This document shows positions 4,881 through 63,246 of a stretch of DNA of 64,000 nt, one piece after another; within the stretch, counting starts at the first letter, position 1; every line of letters starts with the position of its first letter. The position numbers and the translations under genes were made by a program. The notes beneath the pieces are model-generated. The model was not told the DNA's origin. It saw nothing but the letters and a program-made list of their open reading frames with translations, and ran no database searches. The stretch comes from Octopus sinensis (Eukaryota), in NCBI RefSeq assembly GCF_006345805.1, contig NC_043009.1:12834001-12898000 (forward strand). Direction: 5' to 3'.

Positions 4881-4883
<3 letters not shown>

Positions 4884-5109
4884 TTTACTACCCACAAGGG
4901 GCTAAACATAGAGGGGGTCAAACAGGACAGATAAAGGTATTAAGTCGATTAAATCGACCCCAGTGCGAAACTGGTACTTTATTTATCGACCCGGAAAGGA
5001 TGACAGGCAAAGTCGACCTCGGCGGAATTTGAACTCAGAACGTAACGGCAGAGGAAATACGGCTACGCATTTCGCCCGGCATGCTAACGTTTCTGCCAGC
5101 TCGCCGCCT
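4881..5109 (-). mobile_element. tRNA-derived SINE, family A
   Basis: Reverse-complement match to the family-A unit; the 3' end runs into a (TA)n tract. Confidence 0.93.
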
Positions 5110-8002: not shown

Positions 8003-8630
8003 AGGCAGTGAGTTGGCAGAATCGTTAGCACGCCGGGCGAAATGCGTGCCATATTTCGTCTGGAGCTACGTTCTGAGTTCAAATTCTGCCGAAGTCGACT
8101 TTGCCTTTCACCCTTTCGGGGTCGATAGATTAAGTACCATTTACGCACTGGGGTCGATATAATCGACTTAATCCATTTGTCTGTCCTTGTTTGTCCCCTC
8201 TGTGTTTAGCCCCTTGTGGGTAGTAAAGAAATAGATATTTCGTCTGCTTCTACGTTCTGAGTTCAAATTCCGCCGAGGTCGACTTTGCCTTTCATCCTTT
8301 CGGGTTCGATTAAATAAGTACCAGTTACGTACTGGGGTCGATATAATCGACTTAATCCGTTTGTCTGTCCTTGTTTGTCCTCTCTGTGTTTAGCCCTTTG
8401 TGGGTAGTAAAGAAATAGGTATTTCGTCTGTCTTTACATTCTGAGTTCAAATTCCGCCGAAGTCGAATTTGCCTTTCATCCTTTCGGGGTCGATAAATTA
8501 AACACCAGCTGCGTACTGGGGTCGATCTAATCGACTGGCCGCCTCCCCTCAAATTTCGGGCCTTTTGTCAAGAGTAGAAAAGAGTCGTTAGCACGCCGGG
8601 CAAACTTCTCAGCGACATTTCGCCCGTCTT
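8003..8630 (+). mobile_element. tandem/nested array of family-A SINEs
   Basis: Three consecutive units rejoining at AAATAG(G/A)TATTTCGTCTG (about 8231 and 8415), then a further head fragment at 8585-8630. Confidence 0.9.
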
Positions 8631-17021: not shown

Positions 17022-17255
17022 CTATTTCTTTATTACCCACAAGGGGCTAAACATAGAAGGGACAAACAAGGACAGACATAGGTATTAAGTCGATTGTATC
17101 GACCTCAGTGTGTAACTGGTACTTACTTAATCGACCTCGAAAGAATGAAAGGCAAAGTCGACCTCGGCGGAATTTGAACTCACAACGTAACTGCAGACGA
17201 AATACTGCTAAGCATTTAGCCCGGCGTGCTAACCGTTCTGCCAGCACACCGCCTT
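17022..17255 (-). mobile_element. SINE family A nested in an older repeat (16920-17370)
   Basis: Family-A unit flanked by duplicated TGCATACC. Confidence 0.9.
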
Positions 17256-24048: not shown

Positions 24049-24444
24049 AGGCGCAGGCGTAGTTATGTGGTAAAGGCAGCGAGCTGGCAGAATTGTTAGC
24101 ACGCCGGGCGAAATGCTTAGCGGTATTTCGTCTGCCTATACGTTCTGAGTTCAAATTCCGCCGAGGTCGACTTTACCCTTCATCCTTTCGGGGTCGATAA
24201 ATTAAGTACCAGTTACGCACTGGGGTCGATGTAATCAACTTAATCCCTTTGTCTGTCCTTGTTTGTCCCCTCTATGTTTAGCCCCTTGTGGGCAATAAAG
24301 AAATAAGAAGCTTGCTTTCCAACTACATGGTTTCGGGTTCAGTCCCAGTGCGTGGCACCTTGGACAAGTGTCTTTTCCTATAGCCTCGAGCCGACCAAAG
24401 TCTTGGGAGTGGATTTCGTAGACGGAAACTGAAAGAAGCCCGTC

Positions 24445-24509
<65 letters not shown>

Positions 24510-24735
24510 CGCGCGTGTATGTGTGTGTTTGTCCCCCGACCATCGCTTAACAGCCGATGTTGGTGTGTTTAAGTCCTCGTAACTTAGCAGTTCGGCAAAA
24601 TAACCAATAGAGTAAGTACTAAACCTACAAAGCATAAATCCTGGGCTCGATGTCTTCAACTAAAACCCTTTAAGGTAGTGCCCTAGCATGGCCACAGCTA
24701 AATAACTGAAACCAAAAGAATAACTAAAATAACTA
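24049..24735 (+). mobile_element. SINE family B interrupted by a family-A SINE (24074-24306)
   Basis: B head TAGGCGCAGG...TGTGGTAA, then a complete A unit, then B resumes at GAAGCTTGCTTTCC. Confidence 0.92.
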
Positions 24736-25351: not shown

Positions 25352-26521
25352 TGAGAAAAACTAGAGAGCAAATTAAATACAGTGTTTTAATAGTCATATT
25401 GTACAATAAAATGATGATAAGAATAATTCTTTATTGATCGTAAAAACCAAAACCGAAACAAAACATTTAGGACGAGTAAAAGAGAAAGGAAAGTGATGAT
25501 TCGCACATAAACACGTCATCAATAAAACAATAACAATCAATATAAAAAAATTATACAACATGATTCTCCAATGTGGGCTATTACCGCACAGAAGCAAACA
25601 AAAGCTCCACCGATCGTGGATCACTCTAAGCTCCAAGGATACTACAATAAGAATTATTTCCATCCGTCTTGTCCAACCTACAAACGCAGCCTCGGAGCAG
25701 GCCCACTCTTTCGGTAAATTCAGCCACATTTCACTTTCGGTGAATTTACCGACGAACAGTACTTCCTTCTCCCTAATTGCTTTCCTTTTTAAAGGGAGCA
25801 TTAAAAAACCGATAAGGGCTTCTTCCAAGAGGAATGTGTATCTTCAGTTTTTCATCATAGGAACCGGACAAAGGACAACTGCCGGCCAAAGGAGGAGGAT
25901 AAGACGAGAGTAGTTATTCGACTTAACTTCACAAATCCGAAATGCTCTGGAACCGTAAGAGGCTGAGCAGAGTGAGCTCATCGCTGTGTGCACATCTTGG
26001 GCTGATAGCCTGTATAGTTTATCCTGATCAGGCAATGCCCTCTGGTAAGCATTGCAAGGCAAGAGGTTTCTGGAAATTATCCATAAGACCCCGTCCTGTC
26101 TACAAAAAGTAGAAGAGCAAGGAATAGTAGATGACAGGTAAGATATAGGTATTTCCTACCCTCACCTTCACCTTACACTTCAAGGAAAGCTTTCTCTTGT
26201 CCTATTCCTAGATGAGACTGCTCACTCTGCTTGTCACATTGTTTACATAAAGGTCCGGACCAAGCCAGACCCCGAGCAAATAAAAGGCAAATTTGGCATC
26301 GACGAGATTCGAACACAAAATGTGAACAGCCAGAAGAAATATTTCAACACATTTTCTCCGGCGCTCTAATGATTCTGCCAAACCACATACCAAAGTCTGA
26401 AATTTGAGGGAGGTGGATAATTGAAGCCATTGAGGCCAATATTAGACAGGTGCTTAGTTTTATCAACCTTGAAATAATATTAATTACTGCTACTGATATT
26501 TTGAGATATATTTACATAGGA

Positions 26522-32005: not shown

Positions 32006-32237
32006 AAGGCGGCGAGCTGGCAGAAACGTTAGCACGCCGGGCGAAATGCTTAGCGGTATTTCGTCTGCCGTTACGTTCTGAGTTCAAATTCCGCCGAGGT
32101 CGACTTTGCCTTTCATCCTTTCGGGGTCGATTAAATAAGTACCAGTTACGCACTAGAGTCGATATAATCGACTTAATCCGTTTGTGTTTCCTTGTTTGGC
32201 CCTTCTGTGTTTAGCCCCTTGTGGGCAGTAAAGAAAT
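32006..32237 (+). mobile_element. SINE family A with TSD
   Basis: Flanked by AGG(T/A)AGAGATAGTATGTAA on both sides. Confidence 0.95.
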
Positions 32238-32569
32238 AGGAAGAGATAGTATGTAAAGGTGCTTCATTTGAGCAGAGACTGTTTTAAAAAAACGATAGGA
32301 GAGAAAAGATACAGGTAACATATGTGTGGATTTTGAATTATAGAGAATTGATAAGTAAATGGTTAAATTACTTGCATGGCGTTGTCTTACATTCTATGTA
32401 TTATAAATGCCCTTTGTTACGTCACATTTCTGAAACCCTTTACAAATTCACAGAACGTATAATTTTAATAATTGCACTATGACCCACCTTCACTTCTTTG
32501 GTACGTACTCTCATCTATTACCTCTCCCTGCTACAAATCACAGTCTGCGGTAACGAAAATATTTTAATA

Positions 32570-32788
32570 TATTGGTTTCAAATTTTGGTACAAGGGCAGC
32601 AGGTTTAGGCGAAAGGTTATGTCGATTACATCCACCCTAGTAATCAACTGGTACTTATTTTATCGACCCCGGAAGGAGGAAAGGCAAAGCTGACCTCACC
32701 GGAATTTGAACTGAGATCGTAAGGACGGATGAAATGCCGCTAAGCATTTTGCCTGGCGTGCTCACGATTCTGCATGCTCGCTGCCTTG
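32570..32788 (-). mobile_element. older family-A-related SINE
   Basis: GGTACTTATTTTATCGACCCC...AAAGGCAAAG...GGAATTTGAACT...CTCGCTGCCTT. Confidence 0.8.
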
Positions 32789-46187: not shown

Positions 46188-46300
46188 TTTCTTTCTTTCT
46201 TTCTTTTCTTTCTTTCTTTCTGTCTTTCTTGCCTTCTTTCTTTCTTTCTATTTCTTCCTTCCTTTCTTTCTTTTACTTTCTTTCTTTCTTTCTTTCTTTC
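45925..46300. repeat. (CTTT)n polypyrimidine tract
   Basis: Direct reading; source of the K/E/R-rich and F/L/S-rich ORFs. Confidence 0.95.
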
Positions 46301-46984
46301 TGCCAACTTTAAAAACAAGGGGCTTCAGTGAAGTTTCCTCTTGCTCGGCTTCTACCATATTGTGATTCATGTCGGTTCTTTCTGGTCTACATAGTCTTTG
46401 GCAGGGTGATTATGGTTGAAATAATAATGTGAATAACAAATAGTTGCGGTGTAGACAGAGAGGGAAAGTAGTTATGTAGGAAATAGGATATAGAGAGGAA
46501 TAGGAGGTAAGTATGTATCTGTGGTGTGTAGGTCTTAGAAAGATATGGTGAAGATAATTATTTTGGTATGATATAGGAACTTCGTTACTGTCTAGGGTTC
46601 AGCAAGGCTAGGAATTAACGGGAAAAGACAGATATATAGTATATTTTCTCTAAATTAGTTTCTTTTTTTTATGGTATTCTAGAATCTCCAAAAGAATGCT
46701 TTTAGATAATATAATTCCTCGTATAATATAGGTTAAACTCAAGTTCAATTTGGTATTAGCGTTACTAGTTTCCTATGAACATCTAAAATCAATATTTTTG
46801 AAAGGTTGGATTACGAAAGTTATGCTCCGAAAAATATTTATTAGAATGTTCTGATCCGTTTCTAGCTATTATATTATATTTATATTCTATGAGTGTAGAA
46901 AAATGCTTTGATAACTACTGACTGAGGATGCGGTTTCCATGAGCATATGTATATGAACGTCTTAAAGCATCCATTACGATTGTT

Positions 46985-47413
46985 TGGGTTCAATGAAGAT
47001 TATAACTTGATCCCGGGCGACGCGAACTCGGAACTTGACTACGTTCTGAGGGAGGCGTGGTTGATGGTGGAGGGCGCGGGCACAAGCTATTTCGAGGACG
47101 ATATGTATTATTAGTAATGGACTTAAGTCCAAAAATTGAAAAATTGTAAGAGGATTAATACCTCGTTAGGTATTAATAATGGACTGCTAAGTCCAAAAAT
47201 TGGAAAAATTGTAAGAGGTTTAATACCTCGTTTTGTGTTTATCTTTTTAAAAAGAACAATGTTTTAGAGAAGCAAAAGTCGGCGGGCGCTTTTTGTCTTC
47301 TCCCATCCTTATCATCTTTCTTTCATTATCATTCACCTCATTAATGTCCTCGTCCAGCCCGCAAAGCTAACTTAATCTGTGTACTGCCTTTATGGCAAAT
47401 GTTTTGAAATAAA
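46985..47413 (+). mobile_element. 5'-truncated sister copy of the ORF1-only element
   Basis: 46991-47101 matches 49266-49377 (ORF end) and 47171-47413 matches 49506-49745 (3' UTR); carries its own ~120-bp deletion and ~62-bp duplication. Confidence 0.9.
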
Positions 47414-47426
47414 GTAGCTTGCTAAC

Positions 47427-49745
47427 ACACATGCGCAGTTAGTCAGTTGCTTCCTGTCGAGCCAGAGTGGACGTGAGTTAACCAGCTCCGTCCAATTATA
47501 GAAAAAAGATCAAAAACAGAAAGTTGTCGAGGTGAGTGATTTTGTTTATTGTGAGTTGGGCACAATTTATTGCGTGCTAATTATTATTTCAGTAAGTTGT
47601 GTCCAACTCTGAGACAATTTCGCCTGCTCTCGGCGGCTGTTTTGTTTTTGTGTTCATTGAAAAAAACAGTGGAGGGGCGTATCCTCGGAACCCAATACAG
47701 TTACTGTTAAAATTACCGTTGGCGGTAGCCAGTGCTGTGTTTGGGTTTGTTGAATTTATTCCTTTGTCGGAGTATTTCGCAAGAAAATTATAAGAATAAG
47801 CCACTTTTGGATTACCTTTCGGGCCCATTTTTGTGGAGGTTGTGTTCCAGGTGCGGCGTTCCAGGTTCAACTCAGGCCGGGAGTACCGTAAGGCCAGAAG
47901 ATTTTTGCTGTGTTTTTTTTGTTTATTAACTTTCTTTTGAACTTCATTTCACTCCCCCTTTTGTTTTTTTTTGTTTATTGCGACTTTCCGTTGATTTCTT
48001 CCCTTCTGTTGTGCTTTCTCCTTTTTGTTTTTTCAAAAATCTATCAAATTTTATTTGGACTTTTGAACTTTTTTCTTCTCGCTTTTTAAGTTTAATTTGA
48101 ATATATTTAAAAAAAAAACAAAAAAAAACATGGCAATGAAAAATGAGAAAATTTTGGAATGGGAGATCATACCGCCTAAAAAGTGGTTAAAAGACCGTGA
48201 AGATAGGACGGTGGTGTTGAGAACCTACTCCAAGGCACTCGACACCATCGCCCTATTCGAAAAGACGGCAATTGAAAAGGAGTTGGAAGAGTATTTGCCA
48301 ACAATTAAATTCATTTCCAGGGGTGTCAAATATGCAACGGTGTGTTTGCTATTTGACACCCCTTGCAAATTTGCTAGTAAGCCCCTGGAGGGTAAGGAAA
48401 TTTTATGCCTGCCCACGTACCAAAAAAAGAGACTGACGAAAGCTTGGATTTGCGGGCTGCCACCCGGGATAAGACCCGAGTGGATAGAGGAGACTATCCG
48501 CCGGGGTTTGGGTAGCAGCGAAACTAAGCTCCTTAATGTAAAAGTTCTTCCTGTGGCTGCTTGGGTTGGGTCAAAAGCAATTTTGACCCTGTGGACCCAA
48601 TCAGCCAATCTGGTTCTTCCAGATTTTTTGAAAATGGTCGGGTGCAGGTACCCGGTGATGCTTGAGGGTCGCCCCCCTAAGTGTCATCGGTGCTTGGAGT
48701 CCGGCCATATAAAGAAAAACTGTCCCCGGGAACAAAATAGGATCCCGGAACAGTTAATAGAAACCCCTCTAGAAGAGGGAATGATAACGGCCGAGGAAGC
48801 AGAGGACTTCTCAAACAGAGGCAGAAAGAGGAAGGTGAGCAACAATGGGTGCTCACCAAAGGATACTAGGGATGAGGAGGGAAAGGCGAATCTTCCGGCC
48901 ACGGAGGAGACGCACCCTCCCTCAGTTGAAAAGAAAAAAAAGAAAAAGAGGAAGAGAAACAGGACATTACCGGCTGTCGGTGACATAGCACCGGAATGTC
49001 CCGGAACTACGTCGGTTGGGGTTGTGCCACCGACAGGAGAAGAAATACCGTTGGCGGGAACTGTGCCGCCAATGAAAGAATTGAATATCCCGCAACCGAG
49101 CAAAAACGATGTATTGATCCTCTTCTATAGAGGCGGAGAGATTGAAAAGGTGATGGAAAAGCACCACAAGGGAGCACCTTTAGCCTTCACAAAGGACCCC
49201 GAATGGCCTCCGCAGGTAGCCGTGGAGGCCGTGGCGTTCGACGTGACGCTTGGGCTGAAGGAGCTCAATGAGGATTATAGCTTGGTCCCGGGCGACGCTA
49301 ACTCGGAACTCGATTATGTTCTGAGGGAGGCGTGGTGGATGGTGGAGGGCGCGGACACAAGTTATTTCGAGGACGAGTCAAATTGTGATACGACTTGAGG
49401 GACCCCGACCTAGAGCTGGCGCATTCCTAAGGGAAGTGTAAACCAGGTCTGGGAGGAGGGGCTTTGTGTATTGTATTTATATATGTAATTATTGAACTAT
49501 GTTGTTATTAGTAATGGACTGCTAAGTCCAAAAATTGAAAAAATTGTAAGAGGTTTAATACCTCGTTTTGTGTTTGTTTTTAAAAGAACAATGTTTTAGA
49601 GAAGCAGAAGTCGGCGGGCGCTTTTTGTCTTCTCCCATCCCCACCATCTTTCTTTCATTATCATTCACTTCATTAATGTCCTCGTCCAGCCCGCAAAGCT
49701 AACTTACTCTATGTACTGCCTTTATGGCAAATGTTATGAAATAAA
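47427..49745 (+). mobile_element. apparently full-length L1/Tx1-like non-LTR element encoding ORF1 only
   Basis: About 700-bp 5' UTR, one ORF, about 350-bp 3' UTR ending AATAAA; flanked by duplicated GTAGCTTGCTAAC (47414-47426 and 49746-49758). Confidence 0.82.
48130..49398 (+). CDS. gag-like ORF1 protein (L1/Tx1-type; RRM-like region, CCHC zinc knuckle, basic NLS-like tract), 422 aa from the first ATG
   Basis: The only long non-repetitive open frame in the window; contains TKAWICGLPP (RNP2-like), LPDFLKM...PVMLEGRPPKCHRCLESGHIKKNCP (CX2CX4HX4C) and KKKKKKRKRNR. Confidence 0.85.
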   Translation: MAMKNEKILEWEIIPPKKWLKDREDRTVVLRTYSKALDTIALFEKTAIEKELEEYLPTIKFISRGVKYATVCLLFDTPCKFASKPLEGKEILCLPTYQKKRLTKAWICGLPPGIRPEWIEETIRRGLGSSETKLLNVKVLPVAAWVGSKAILTLWTQSANLVLPDFLKMVGCRYPVMLEGRPPKCHRCLESGHIKKNCPREQNRIPEQLIETPLEEGMITAEEAEDFSNRGRKRKVSNNGCSPKDTRDEEGKANLPATEETHPPSVEKKKKKKRKRNRTLPAVGDIAPECPGTTSVGVVPPTGEEIPLAGTVPPMKELNIPQPSKNDVLILFYRGGEIEKVMEKHHKGAPLAFTKDPEWPPQVAVEAVAFDVTLGLKELNEDYSLVPGDANSELDYVLREAWWMVEGADTSYFEDESNCDTT

Positions 49746-49886
49746 GTAGCTTGCTAACCAACCACATGGTTCCGGGTTCAGTCCCACTGCGTGGCATCTT
49801 GGGCAAGTGTCTTCTGCTATAGCCCCGGGCCGACCAATGCCTTGTGAGTGGATTTGGTAGACGGAAACTGAAAGAAGCCTGTCGTA

Positions 49887-49947
<61 letters not shown>

Positions 49948-50157
49948 TTGTGTGTCTGTGTTTGTCCCCCTAGCATTGATTGACAACCGATGCTGGTGTG
50001 TTTATGTCTCCGTTACTTAGCGGTTCGGCAAAAGAACCCGATAGAATAAGTACTGGACTTACAAAAGAATAAGTCCCGGGGTCGATTTGCTCGATTAAAG
50101 GCGGTGCTCCAGCATGGTCACAGTCAAATGACTGAAACAAGTAAAAGAGTAAAAGAG
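49746..50157 (+). mobile_element. SINE family B lacking its first ~26 nt
   Basis: Starts at GTAGCTTGCTAACCAACC directly after the AATAAA of the ORF1-only element. Confidence 0.92.
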
Positions 50158-50699
50158 ATATGTAATTAAATGAGACAGCTAGTTAGCAGTCATCAAATAT
50201 AAGGGTGTTAGACCACCTAAACTTCTAGAAACAAGAGCTAAAGCACTCTTACTGTTGTCAACGTATATAAATTATATGCATACATGCTGGCAGTGATCGT
50301 AAATGGCCGGAAAGTGGCGAACGGAATATCCCTTTACGATACAGTTTTAGCTTTAGACTGAAACCCTCATCAGAAGGGTCGGCACAAATCGTCATATTCC
50401 GGGCAAACATCAGCACGAGCATACATGTGTACACCATAAAAAATTGTGGATTAATTATCGAATTGCTAATGTGTATACAAATAATTAAATGAGGCAGCGA
50501 GTTAGAAGGGTTTTTACCAAAAAGATAAGAAATAATTGTCATGAAATATGACTGAGGGTGTTAGAACACTTACACTGCTAGAAATAACAGCTGAAGGCCG
50601 CTATTGCTGATGTCAATGTGCATAAATTGTATACATACATACATACATACATACATGCATGCATACATACATACATACATACATACATACATACATACA

Positions 50700-53099: not shown

Positions 53100-53770
53100 A
53101 ATGTGGACATGGCAAGAACGTCCATGTAAAAAGAAGTGAGGTAAAGAAAGCTCTGGAAAAGGAAAAAAGCGGGACAGCATCAGGTCTAAATGCAGTACCG
53201 ATTGAACAGATCAAGGGTACAGGAGAAAGAAGGCGGCGAGCTGGTAGAGACGTTAGCACGCCGGGTGAAATGCGTAACCGTATTTCATCTCCTGCTATGT
53301 TCTGAGTTCAAATTCCGCCGAGGTCGACTTTGCCTTTCATCCTTTCGGGGTCGATAAATTAAGTACCAGTTACGCACTGGGGTCGATGTAATCGACTTAA
53401 TCCGTTTGTCTGTCCTTGTTTGTCCCCTCTATGTTTAGCCCCTTGTGGGTAGTAAAGAAATAGGTACAGGAGAAAGTGCTATAACAATACTCCACATCCA
53501 CTGCTGTAAGATATGGAGAGAGGAGGGGTGGCCATTAGATGGATGCAGAGCAAGATATGTACCTAAACGCAAAAAAGTGAGACCTGCTCATGTGTGAAAA
53601 TTATCGAACAATTGCTACGATATCATATGCAAGCAGAGTACTTTAGATAATCATCCTAGAATGTTTGAAAGCTTTCCTCGAACAAGAAACAACCAAAGTA
53701 CAAGCTGGCTTTAGAAGCGGACGTGGAACAAGAGGTCATCTGCACAATCTCTATAGAGCTTTAGAAAAGA
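53100..53770 (+). pseudogene. RTE/BovB-type LINE RT fragment interrupted by a SINE
   Basis: EVKKALEKEKSGTASGLNAVPIEQIK...CCKIWREEGWP...CENYRTIATISYASRVL...QAGFRSGRGTRGHL. Confidence 0.88.
53230..53462 (+). mobile_element. SINE family A with TSD
   Basis: 14-bp TSD GGTACAGGAGAAAG at 53216-53229 and 53463-53476. Confidence 0.95.
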
Positions 53771-62068: not shown

Positions 62069-62823
62069 TTAGTTAGTTAGTTAGTTAGTTAATTTGGCTC
62101 AAAAGCAAATAGCAAGGCCATGTAGGGGGACATGGAGTTAAGTACAGGGTGGTGTTCATGTAAAGAGTTCAGGCCACTTGAGGTCCAGGGAGGGTTTGAA
62201 CAAAGCGGTCGTCGGCATCTTCACCATCTCGTCTGGCAGCTTGTTCCACGGATCCGCAACCCGGACGGAGAAAGCTCCTCCTTCGATTGAGATGAAATCG
62301 TCGCAGGTAGAGCTTTTCGGAATGACCCCGCAGCCGACGCTCTGGAGCAGGAGTGAAGAACAGCTGTTTCGAGAGGTTACACTTTCCGCTTATGATGTTG
62401 TGGGCGAGAATGAGATCACCACGGCGGCGGCGTTTTTCAAGAGAATAAAGGTCGAGCGTCCTCAGCCTTTCTTCGTAGGACAAATTTTTGAGACCATGAA
62501 CCATGCGGGTAGCCAGCTTCTGGACTCTTTCGAGATGCTGTATGTCTTTGAGGAGATAAGGAGAAGAGGCTTGAATCCCATACTCCAATATAGGTCTCAC
62601 CAGCGTGACATAGAGTGGTAGGAATATGGCTGCTGTGAGCATTCCGAATGACCGTCGAATCAAGAACAGAATTCCGCGTGCTTTGTTGGCAGCATGGAAG
62701 CAGTGGGCCGAAGGCGAAAAGGAGGAATCCACCAAGATACCCAGCTCCTTTACCTGATCGGTCCTCTCCAGCAGCAGACGACCCGGTTCGAAATCAAGTT
62801 GAGTTGCAGGAGTAGAGCCGACA
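62069..62823 (-). mobile_element. young 5'-truncated CR1-clade LINE (ORF2 C-terminus, 3' UTR, (TAAC)n tail)
   Basis: ORF 62169-62735 contains LYVTLVRPILEYG...LERVQKLATRMVHGLKNLSYEERLRTLDLYSLEKRRRRGDLI; frameshift near its end; (TTAG)n at 62069-62090. Confidence 0.93.
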
Positions 62824-63246
62824 TTAAATTAACATTAAACAGTAATTATTTTATCGTTCTGCTATACACAAAAGACAGGTTATAGAGAATGATATATGTA
62901 ACAGGACAGAGAGCATGTTAACACTATCGTGGAAAAAATGGAACATGCACACCTAATATATATCAAAGTCTTGGATGCTGCAATACACCGTTGGTCACAA
63001 TGCTATCTCTGGCACTGTTGTAGCTTTCGAATGATGACATCCCACTGGCTAGACGAATAGGCTAACATTACCCCTGAATGGAATGCCAGCCTTTTGCAGG
63101 GTTACCGATTTATAGCTGAGAGTACTGCAGCCACATGAACTCCAGTGTCTTGTTTAAGAATTTGGACGCATCGCCAATCAAGGAACCCAAACCACCATCT
63201 TGTGATCTTAAGTGCAACATCCTAAACACTAGTCCAGGCACCTTTA

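Follow-up and report, generated by a model that had tools for sequence, protein, structure and literature searches.

Two interruptions at one position of an octopus SINE head, possibly by different routes

In a 64-kb window from Octopus sinensis (64,000 nucleotides of contig NC_043009.1, the whole stretch of DNA analysed here), two copies of one SINE family (family B) are broken at the same position of the head, one by a SINE of another family (family A) and the other by an element that carries only an ORF1 (E). This positional coincidence is real and rests on two loci, and every count given here refers to this single window. We give slightly better than even odds (about 0.55) to the reading that the two interruptions came about by different routes, family A through a match between its tail and a short word of the target, and E through a HAL1-like double insertion.

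Results

Repeat content of the window

The window is 36% GC, and microsatellites and short repeats are abundant in it. BLAST of element parts against the window returned eight family-A loci that have the tail typical of the family, six copies of family B (3415, 10691 on the minus strand, 24051, 31220, 49746 and 57815; together 4% of the window) and the ORF1-only element twice, as E1 and E2 (Table 1). The B copies are of two subtypes, a GAAG-type (10691 and 24051; 12–13% diverged) and a GTAG-type (3415, 31220, 49746 and 57815; 4.6–6.4%), and a search allowing up to seven substitutions recovered five B heads, four of them uninterrupted and four with GGTA retained at positions 21–24. Within the first 25 nt of the head lies what we take to be an A-box-like motif, read by eye against the consensus; A and B box positions were assigned in this manner throughout, regular expressions being unreliable for locating the boxes. 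A tRNA scan found no tRNA gene in the window, and the 84 Rfam matches there were without exception below the gathering score and in simple repeats. Ohshima and Okada reportedly described, in 1994, the octopus tRNA-derived SINEs OK, OR1 and OR2, which are said to have tRNA-like heads and a high copy number; families A and B are probably OK/OR1/OR2-like, and we assign no names to them. None of the five B copies tested is surrounded by a convincing TSD (scores 5–7), unlike family A, which suggests that the partner LINE of B differs from that of A.

Older elements with an A head and other tails lie at 1364–1452, 2146–2376, 2373–2540, 26268–26390 and 32560–32785, and a tail is common to those at 2146 and 32785. 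A 219-aa frame is open on the minus strand at 62169–62828; it is single-copy in the window, has no Pfam match at E 0.1 and, as we read it, presumably resembles the C-terminal part of a CR1/L2-type ORF2.

Table 1. Window coordinates of the features discussed in the text.
Feature	Position	Strand	Basis or remark
Family-B SINE head, first 25 nt, ending GGTAA	24049–24073	+	Sequence reading, head search
Full-length family-A SINE nested in B (24075 copy)	24074–24305	+	BLAST, divergence
TAA common to A 3' end and B target	24304–24306	+	Duplicate of 24071–24073, 3 bp
Remainder of host B copy, GAAG-type	24307–24735	+	BLAST, divergence
Family-A loci	621–851 minus, 1843, 4881–5108 minus, 8004 tandem		BLAST against window
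Further family-A loci	17023–17253 minus, 24075, 32008, 53232		BLAST against window
Control: family-A tandem	8004–8575	+	BLAST, junction reading
Control: closest A relative of 24075, outside B	32008–32238	+	Two diagnostic sites
E1, 5'-truncated ORF1-only copy, 3' UTR ending GAAATAAA	46990–47413	+	BLAST, alignment
Left TSD copy, B positions 26–38	47414–47426	+	13 bp; 15 bp with ambiguous AA
E2, full-length 2.3-kb ORF1-only element	47427–49745	+	ORF list, alignment
Intact ORF1, 422 aa	48130–49398	+	Two RRMs and a single CCHC knuckle predicted; basic tail of low complexity
Headless B copy, the right TSD copy forming its first 13 bp	49746–50158	+	BLAST, head search

Two of six B copies are broken at an equivalent position

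As an earlier sequence-only reading had noticed, a B head is split by a family-A SINE: the head at 24049–24073 ends TGTGGTAA, family A occupies 24074–24305 and B resumes with GAAGCTTGCT at 24307. The same reading had placed GTAGCTTGCT directly 3' of the GAAATAAA that ends the ORF1-only element, and the word indeed begins there at both 47414 and 49746. Since the word after GTAA is identical in the four uninterrupted B heads, the position of the break is equivalent across the loci. The claim of three independent events at this position has to be reduced, for 47414 and 49746 belong to one TSD at one locus; they have in common a variant (...GCTAACC/GCTAAC) that occurs in none of the five other B copies, and this private base marks them as both halves of one B copy's TSD. 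Disruption at this position thus concerns two of the six B copies, with at most two events at one of them. Two of six copies broken within 0–3 nt of each other would have a probability of about 0.003 under uniform insertion, which speaks against chance insertion as an account of the E locus (see below). The duplicated target measures 3 bp at 24075, as opposed to 13–15 bp for the ORF1-only element.

Family A prefers a short GGTA-type target

TSDs of 14, 16, 8, 22 and 14 bp were found at five family-A loci (621–851, 1843–2073, 17023–17253, 32008–32238 and 53232–53462). TSD scores reached 8–18 at six of the eight loci, one of these lying within a TA repeat and being uninformative, compared with a maximum of 6 among 56 mismatched flank pairs that served as the null; neither the 8004 tandem nor the 24075 copy rose above it. 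The left genomic copy of the TSD starts with GGTA at four of the five informative loci and with AGTA at the fifth. GGTA has a background frequency of 0.27% of sites, and its presence at the start in three of the four loci with a long independent core has a probability of about 8e-8, a value to be read in the knowledge that the motif was chosen post hoc. Family A clearly prefers a short GGTA-type target, and this preference is better supported than the positional coincidence itself. In the tandem at 8004, the 3' ends of the two A units both abut the GGTA/GATA at position ~49 of an element that has an A head and another tail; this is likely to reflect repeated insertion at an internal GGTA.

The preference bears directly on the interrupted head. 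Family A is dispersed and not B-targeted: only one of eight loci lies in B (12.5% of a small sample), whereas target-specific Tx1 families are defined, in the cited part of PMC4494074, by a single kind of repeat beside more than 20% of their copies, and the probability that at least one of nine A junctions falls anywhere in B is 0.31. Because the B head contains GGTA, the chance of finding family A at that very word rises from 0.003 under uniform insertion to about 0.12 with the preference, and the coincidence of A in B is mostly accounted for in this way.

The order of insertion can be read from divergence: relative to the family majority in the window the host B copy is 13% diverged and the nested A copy 6.1%, so that the host is the older of the two, as expected for nesting. 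The TSD score of 3 at this locus (TAA only) equals the mode of the null and is no better than it. GGTA stands immediately to the left of the insert and AGAA at the right junction, against the family-A rule, and the junction is displaced by 2–4 nt from that rule into the register of E, the 3' junctions of the 24075 copy and of E both reading GAAATA and then AG[A/T]AGC; the break points at both loci are ambiguous by 2–3 nt through the common TAA/AA. After GAAATA, the 24075 copy continues with AGAA and its closest relative at 32008 with GGAA, as against GGTA at five other A junctions, and the 22-bp TSD at 32008 has GGTA in its left copy and GGAA in its right copy. These two copies (n = 2) suggest that their -GAA tail is encoded by the element. 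If it does come from the RNA and pairs with the target, the tail of the 24075 copy would have six bases in match with the B head of GAAG-type. The TAA microhomology hotspot proposed from the sequence is supported through family A, namely by TSDs starting with GGTA (four of five) and by a TAA that the 24075 copy has in common with its target. Further A-in-B junctions were sought through spurious octopus protein predictions (one frame, 39–125 aa), which gave no candidate, and two scans for octopus contigs among bacterial and archaeal genomes both returned zero. The 3' half of B and family A scored 26 as a possible shared domain, within a shuffle maximum of 31, and this reading was rejected.

A tandem of ORF1-only elements sandwiches a B-derived TSD

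At the second locus, the same 13 bp stand on both sides of E2, at 47414 and 49746, without a mismatch. E1, upstream, retains the last 112 bp of ORF1 and has suffered an internal deletion and a short duplication, and it is followed by only 13 bp of B sequence (about 23 bp may match if a 3-bp gap is allowed) and not by a B copy. At 47102–47170 in E1, ~120 bp are lost after the end of the ORF and the start of the 3' UTR is duplicated in tandem over ~60 bp. B-derived sequence adjoins both E copies, and both are at this one locus. Between E1 and E2, 12 of 240 UTR positions (94–95% identity) and 10 of 112 coding positions are different. Six of the ten coding differences are silent (P 0.005–0.037 against neutral change), an excess which makes it likely that E1 and E2 came from different active sources and which disfavours local duplication. 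A search allowing up to seven substitutions found no B head upstream of E1 (none between 31220 and 57815), so that the original insertion of E into B, its head and TSD being missing before E1, is not seen whole. Upstream of E1, the AT-rich stretch 46300–46989 adjoins a (CTTT)n tract of 380 bp; its minus strand looked Penelope-RT-like by eye, and no Pfam family was matched in its six frames.

A tandem of this kind, with the TSD between its members, is a known mark of Tx1-type targeting and hints at a site preference, but the same picture would result if E re-inserted at the 3' junction of an earlier copy of itself. That E was never aimed at B, and arrived by one chance insertion followed by such re-insertion or by DNA duplication, the match at 24075 being a coincidence helped by AT-rich microhomology, is in our estimation quite unlikely. 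It would suit the single E locus in the window, the identical 3' junctions of E1 and E2, which are without a variable A tail, and the behaviour of family A at 8004–8575, where joining at one junction is repeated without any B; the silent-site excess speaks against neutral duplication. Still less probable is that the element really aims at a family of tRNA genes, of which B heads are look-alikes, or that an E-B composite reached this locus as one read-through transcript that ended in the B tail. The tRNA-like B head, the missing head and left TSD upstream of E1, the lack of any TSD around the entire E1-E2-B unit and the targeting of Dada DNA transposons near the tRNA A box, as cited from PMC8869645, would all agree with it, but the window contains not one tRNA gene; it is in any case compatible with our preferred reading of two routes rather than opposed to it. 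On that preferred reading, the B head is possibly a true target for the ORF1-only element alone, and E is a reasonable lead for a Tx1-type family directed at SINE or tRNA heads.

The protein of E is compatible with a Tx1-type origin

E2 consists of a 703-bp 5' UTR, one long sense ORF and 347 bp from the stop codon to the 3' end; an ORF2 is absent. The 5' UTR contains, at 47439–47473, what we take to be initiator- and DPE-like words, their spacing one base off. A poly(A) tail is absent, both E1 and E2 ending in GAAATAAA (AATAAA) without further A. ORF1 gave a zf-CCHC match at E 0.006, below the curated cut-off, and a search of PDB sequences returned matches to the knuckle only. Its predicted structure (pLDDT 80) found tandem-RRM proteins as top matches (E 1.4e-3 and weaker), with an RRM match of Z 8.2 and rmsd 2.6 over 75 residues, and the atlas clusters nearest to it were CCHC and ZCCHC3-RBD-like (0.89–0.93; a lead only). 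The modelled protein is thus consistent with a type I fold (RRM plus CCHC), which would be compatible with Tx1 and not unique to it. Two protein relatives, 62% and 85% identical, were found in Octopus sinensis. No endonuclease or RT was detected by Pfam in the relatives of ORF1 (27 of 38 hits scanned), and the 6570 candidates of 1092–3115 aa that were searched included no ORF1-ORF2 fusion, which is weak evidence.

LTR retrotransposons have terminal repeats with TG...CA ends, a primer-binding site and a TSD of 4–6 bp. We rejected this class for E, as its upstream repeat has ORF1 coding sequence and ends AATAAA and the duplicate is 13 bp long. E is likely to be HAL1-like and to derive from an L1/Tx1-type LINE. 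The Tx1-type machinery that had been proposed for both insertions is supported for the ORF1-only element alone, through the type I ORF1, the TSD of 13–15 bp and the tandem that sandwiches it.

Family A and E need not have one enzyme in common

The sequence-only reading had also offered one site-preferring machinery for both insertions, and this was not borne out: the TSD geometry of A and E differs, their 3' tails are not significantly alike and an ORF2 was not found. In its strongest form, the idea would be that one Tx1-type endonuclease/RT with an R-GTA preference, strongest at the B head, moves both family A and the ORF1-only element, which we regard as possible but unlikely. The E site AAGTAG fits R-GTA, so that one endonuclease could serve both; the junctions lie in the same 3' register, both elements end GAAATA(AA) without an A tail, and a small GCC-N5-GGC hairpin lies just upstream of both tails in some folds. 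Of the A copies, that at 24075 best matches the E2 tail (score 26, P about 0.01, uncorrected and the best of 16), but over all 16 comparisons P ranged from 0.008 to 0.6, which is not significant, and 4 of 110 control 60-mers ending GAAATA scored at least as high as the best A/E pair. The 8–22 bp of the family-A TSDs overlap the 7–18 bp given for L1-clade LINEs, but the 7–15 bp of RTE-clade TSDs suit family A equally (both from the cited part of PMC6007223). SINEU families are 13–90% targeted under shared Tx1 machinery, as excerpted from PMC4494074; against one enzyme for both stand the seven of eight A loci outside B and top-strand break points ~13 nt apart. A bolder version, in which an octopus Tx1-type LINE targets the most abundant tRNA-derived SINE head just past the A box and carries as passengers the ORF1-only half-LINE (tightly) and family A (through a 4-base core), seems to us unlikely.

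Discussion

Under the reading of two routes, family A would probably be primed for reverse transcription at short target words that match its 3' end, with target-primed reverse transcription supplied by unseen partner LINEs, and the tail of the 24075 copy (...TAAGAA) would pair with the GAAG-type B head. The ORF1-only element would have made two successive insertions at one B site rather than being duplicated there, and the B head may have been lost because a read-through copy was truncated at its 5' end, or else through a later deletion. The B head is likely to be a mild hotspot because it offers the R-GTA/TAAG word.

To our knowledge, the partner LINEs of octopus SINEs and their target rules have been little studied. 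The 4-base target word of family A is a direct handle for tracing its partner. If E is SINE-head-specific, SINEs join RNA genes, microsatellites, DNA transposons and LTR elements as objects of Tx1-type targeting, and half-LINEs extend to a Tx1-type lineage in molluscs; targeting of SINE heads would, if true, disable the Pol III promoters of a rival SINE and offer millions of safe landing sites. If E is not so specific, the locus is ordinary nesting. Hotspots would bias dating by nested insertions in octopus. SINEs account for 11.6% of the O. vulgaris genome, in which 80 L1-Tx1 families are counted (PMC13282606, as excerpted).

No report of this octopus ORF1-only element or of a Tx1 element targeting SINE heads was found in the literature searched, Repbase and subscription papers lying outside it. 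Tx1-type insertion into repeats, TSD tandems, half-LINEs and nested SINEs are already known. In crocodilians, SINEU-3 forms tandems that sandwich the TSD by sequential insertion under Tx1 machinery (Kojima, 2015, PMC4494074). In the passages cited from that paper, SINEU-3/Tx1-Mar resembles E as a non-autonomous tandem with a sandwiched TSD of about 15 bp inside an abundant transposon; it differs in that its target is a Mariner MITE (313 of 347 copies), as opposed to a tRNA-like SINE head at one locus here, and in that the passenger E codes for ORF1. SINEU-2 reaches only 13% targeting there. Like mammalian HAL1 (PMC5753468, PMC5322556, in the parts cited), E has only ORF1 with 5' and 3' UTRs, is flanked by a TSD and would need the RT and endonuclease of a partner, whereas HAL1 has a poly(A) tail, derives from mammalian L1 and has a Transposase_22 ORF1, and E, in an Octopus host, is without an A tail and encodes an ORF1 predicted as RRM-RRM-CCHC. 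Like Tx1-clade LINEs, E has a type I ORF1, which in the cited portion of PMC5203782 fits Tx1 in non-mammalian animals, and sits in a multicopy repeat; unlike them, it is without ORF2, and its clade is not assignable by RT. The Tx1-clade targets given in the part of PMC4494074 drawn on here are Tx1D for Xenopus Tx1, U2 for Keno and microsatellites for Kibi and Koshi; SINE heads do not appear in that list. Family A, finally, recalls the RTE-related SINEs, whose first TSD bases correlate with the 3' end of the element (PMC6007223, as excerpted), in that the start of its TSD matches its tail, but it matches over four bases and has no microsatellite tail, whereas those SINEs match over one or two bases and have one.
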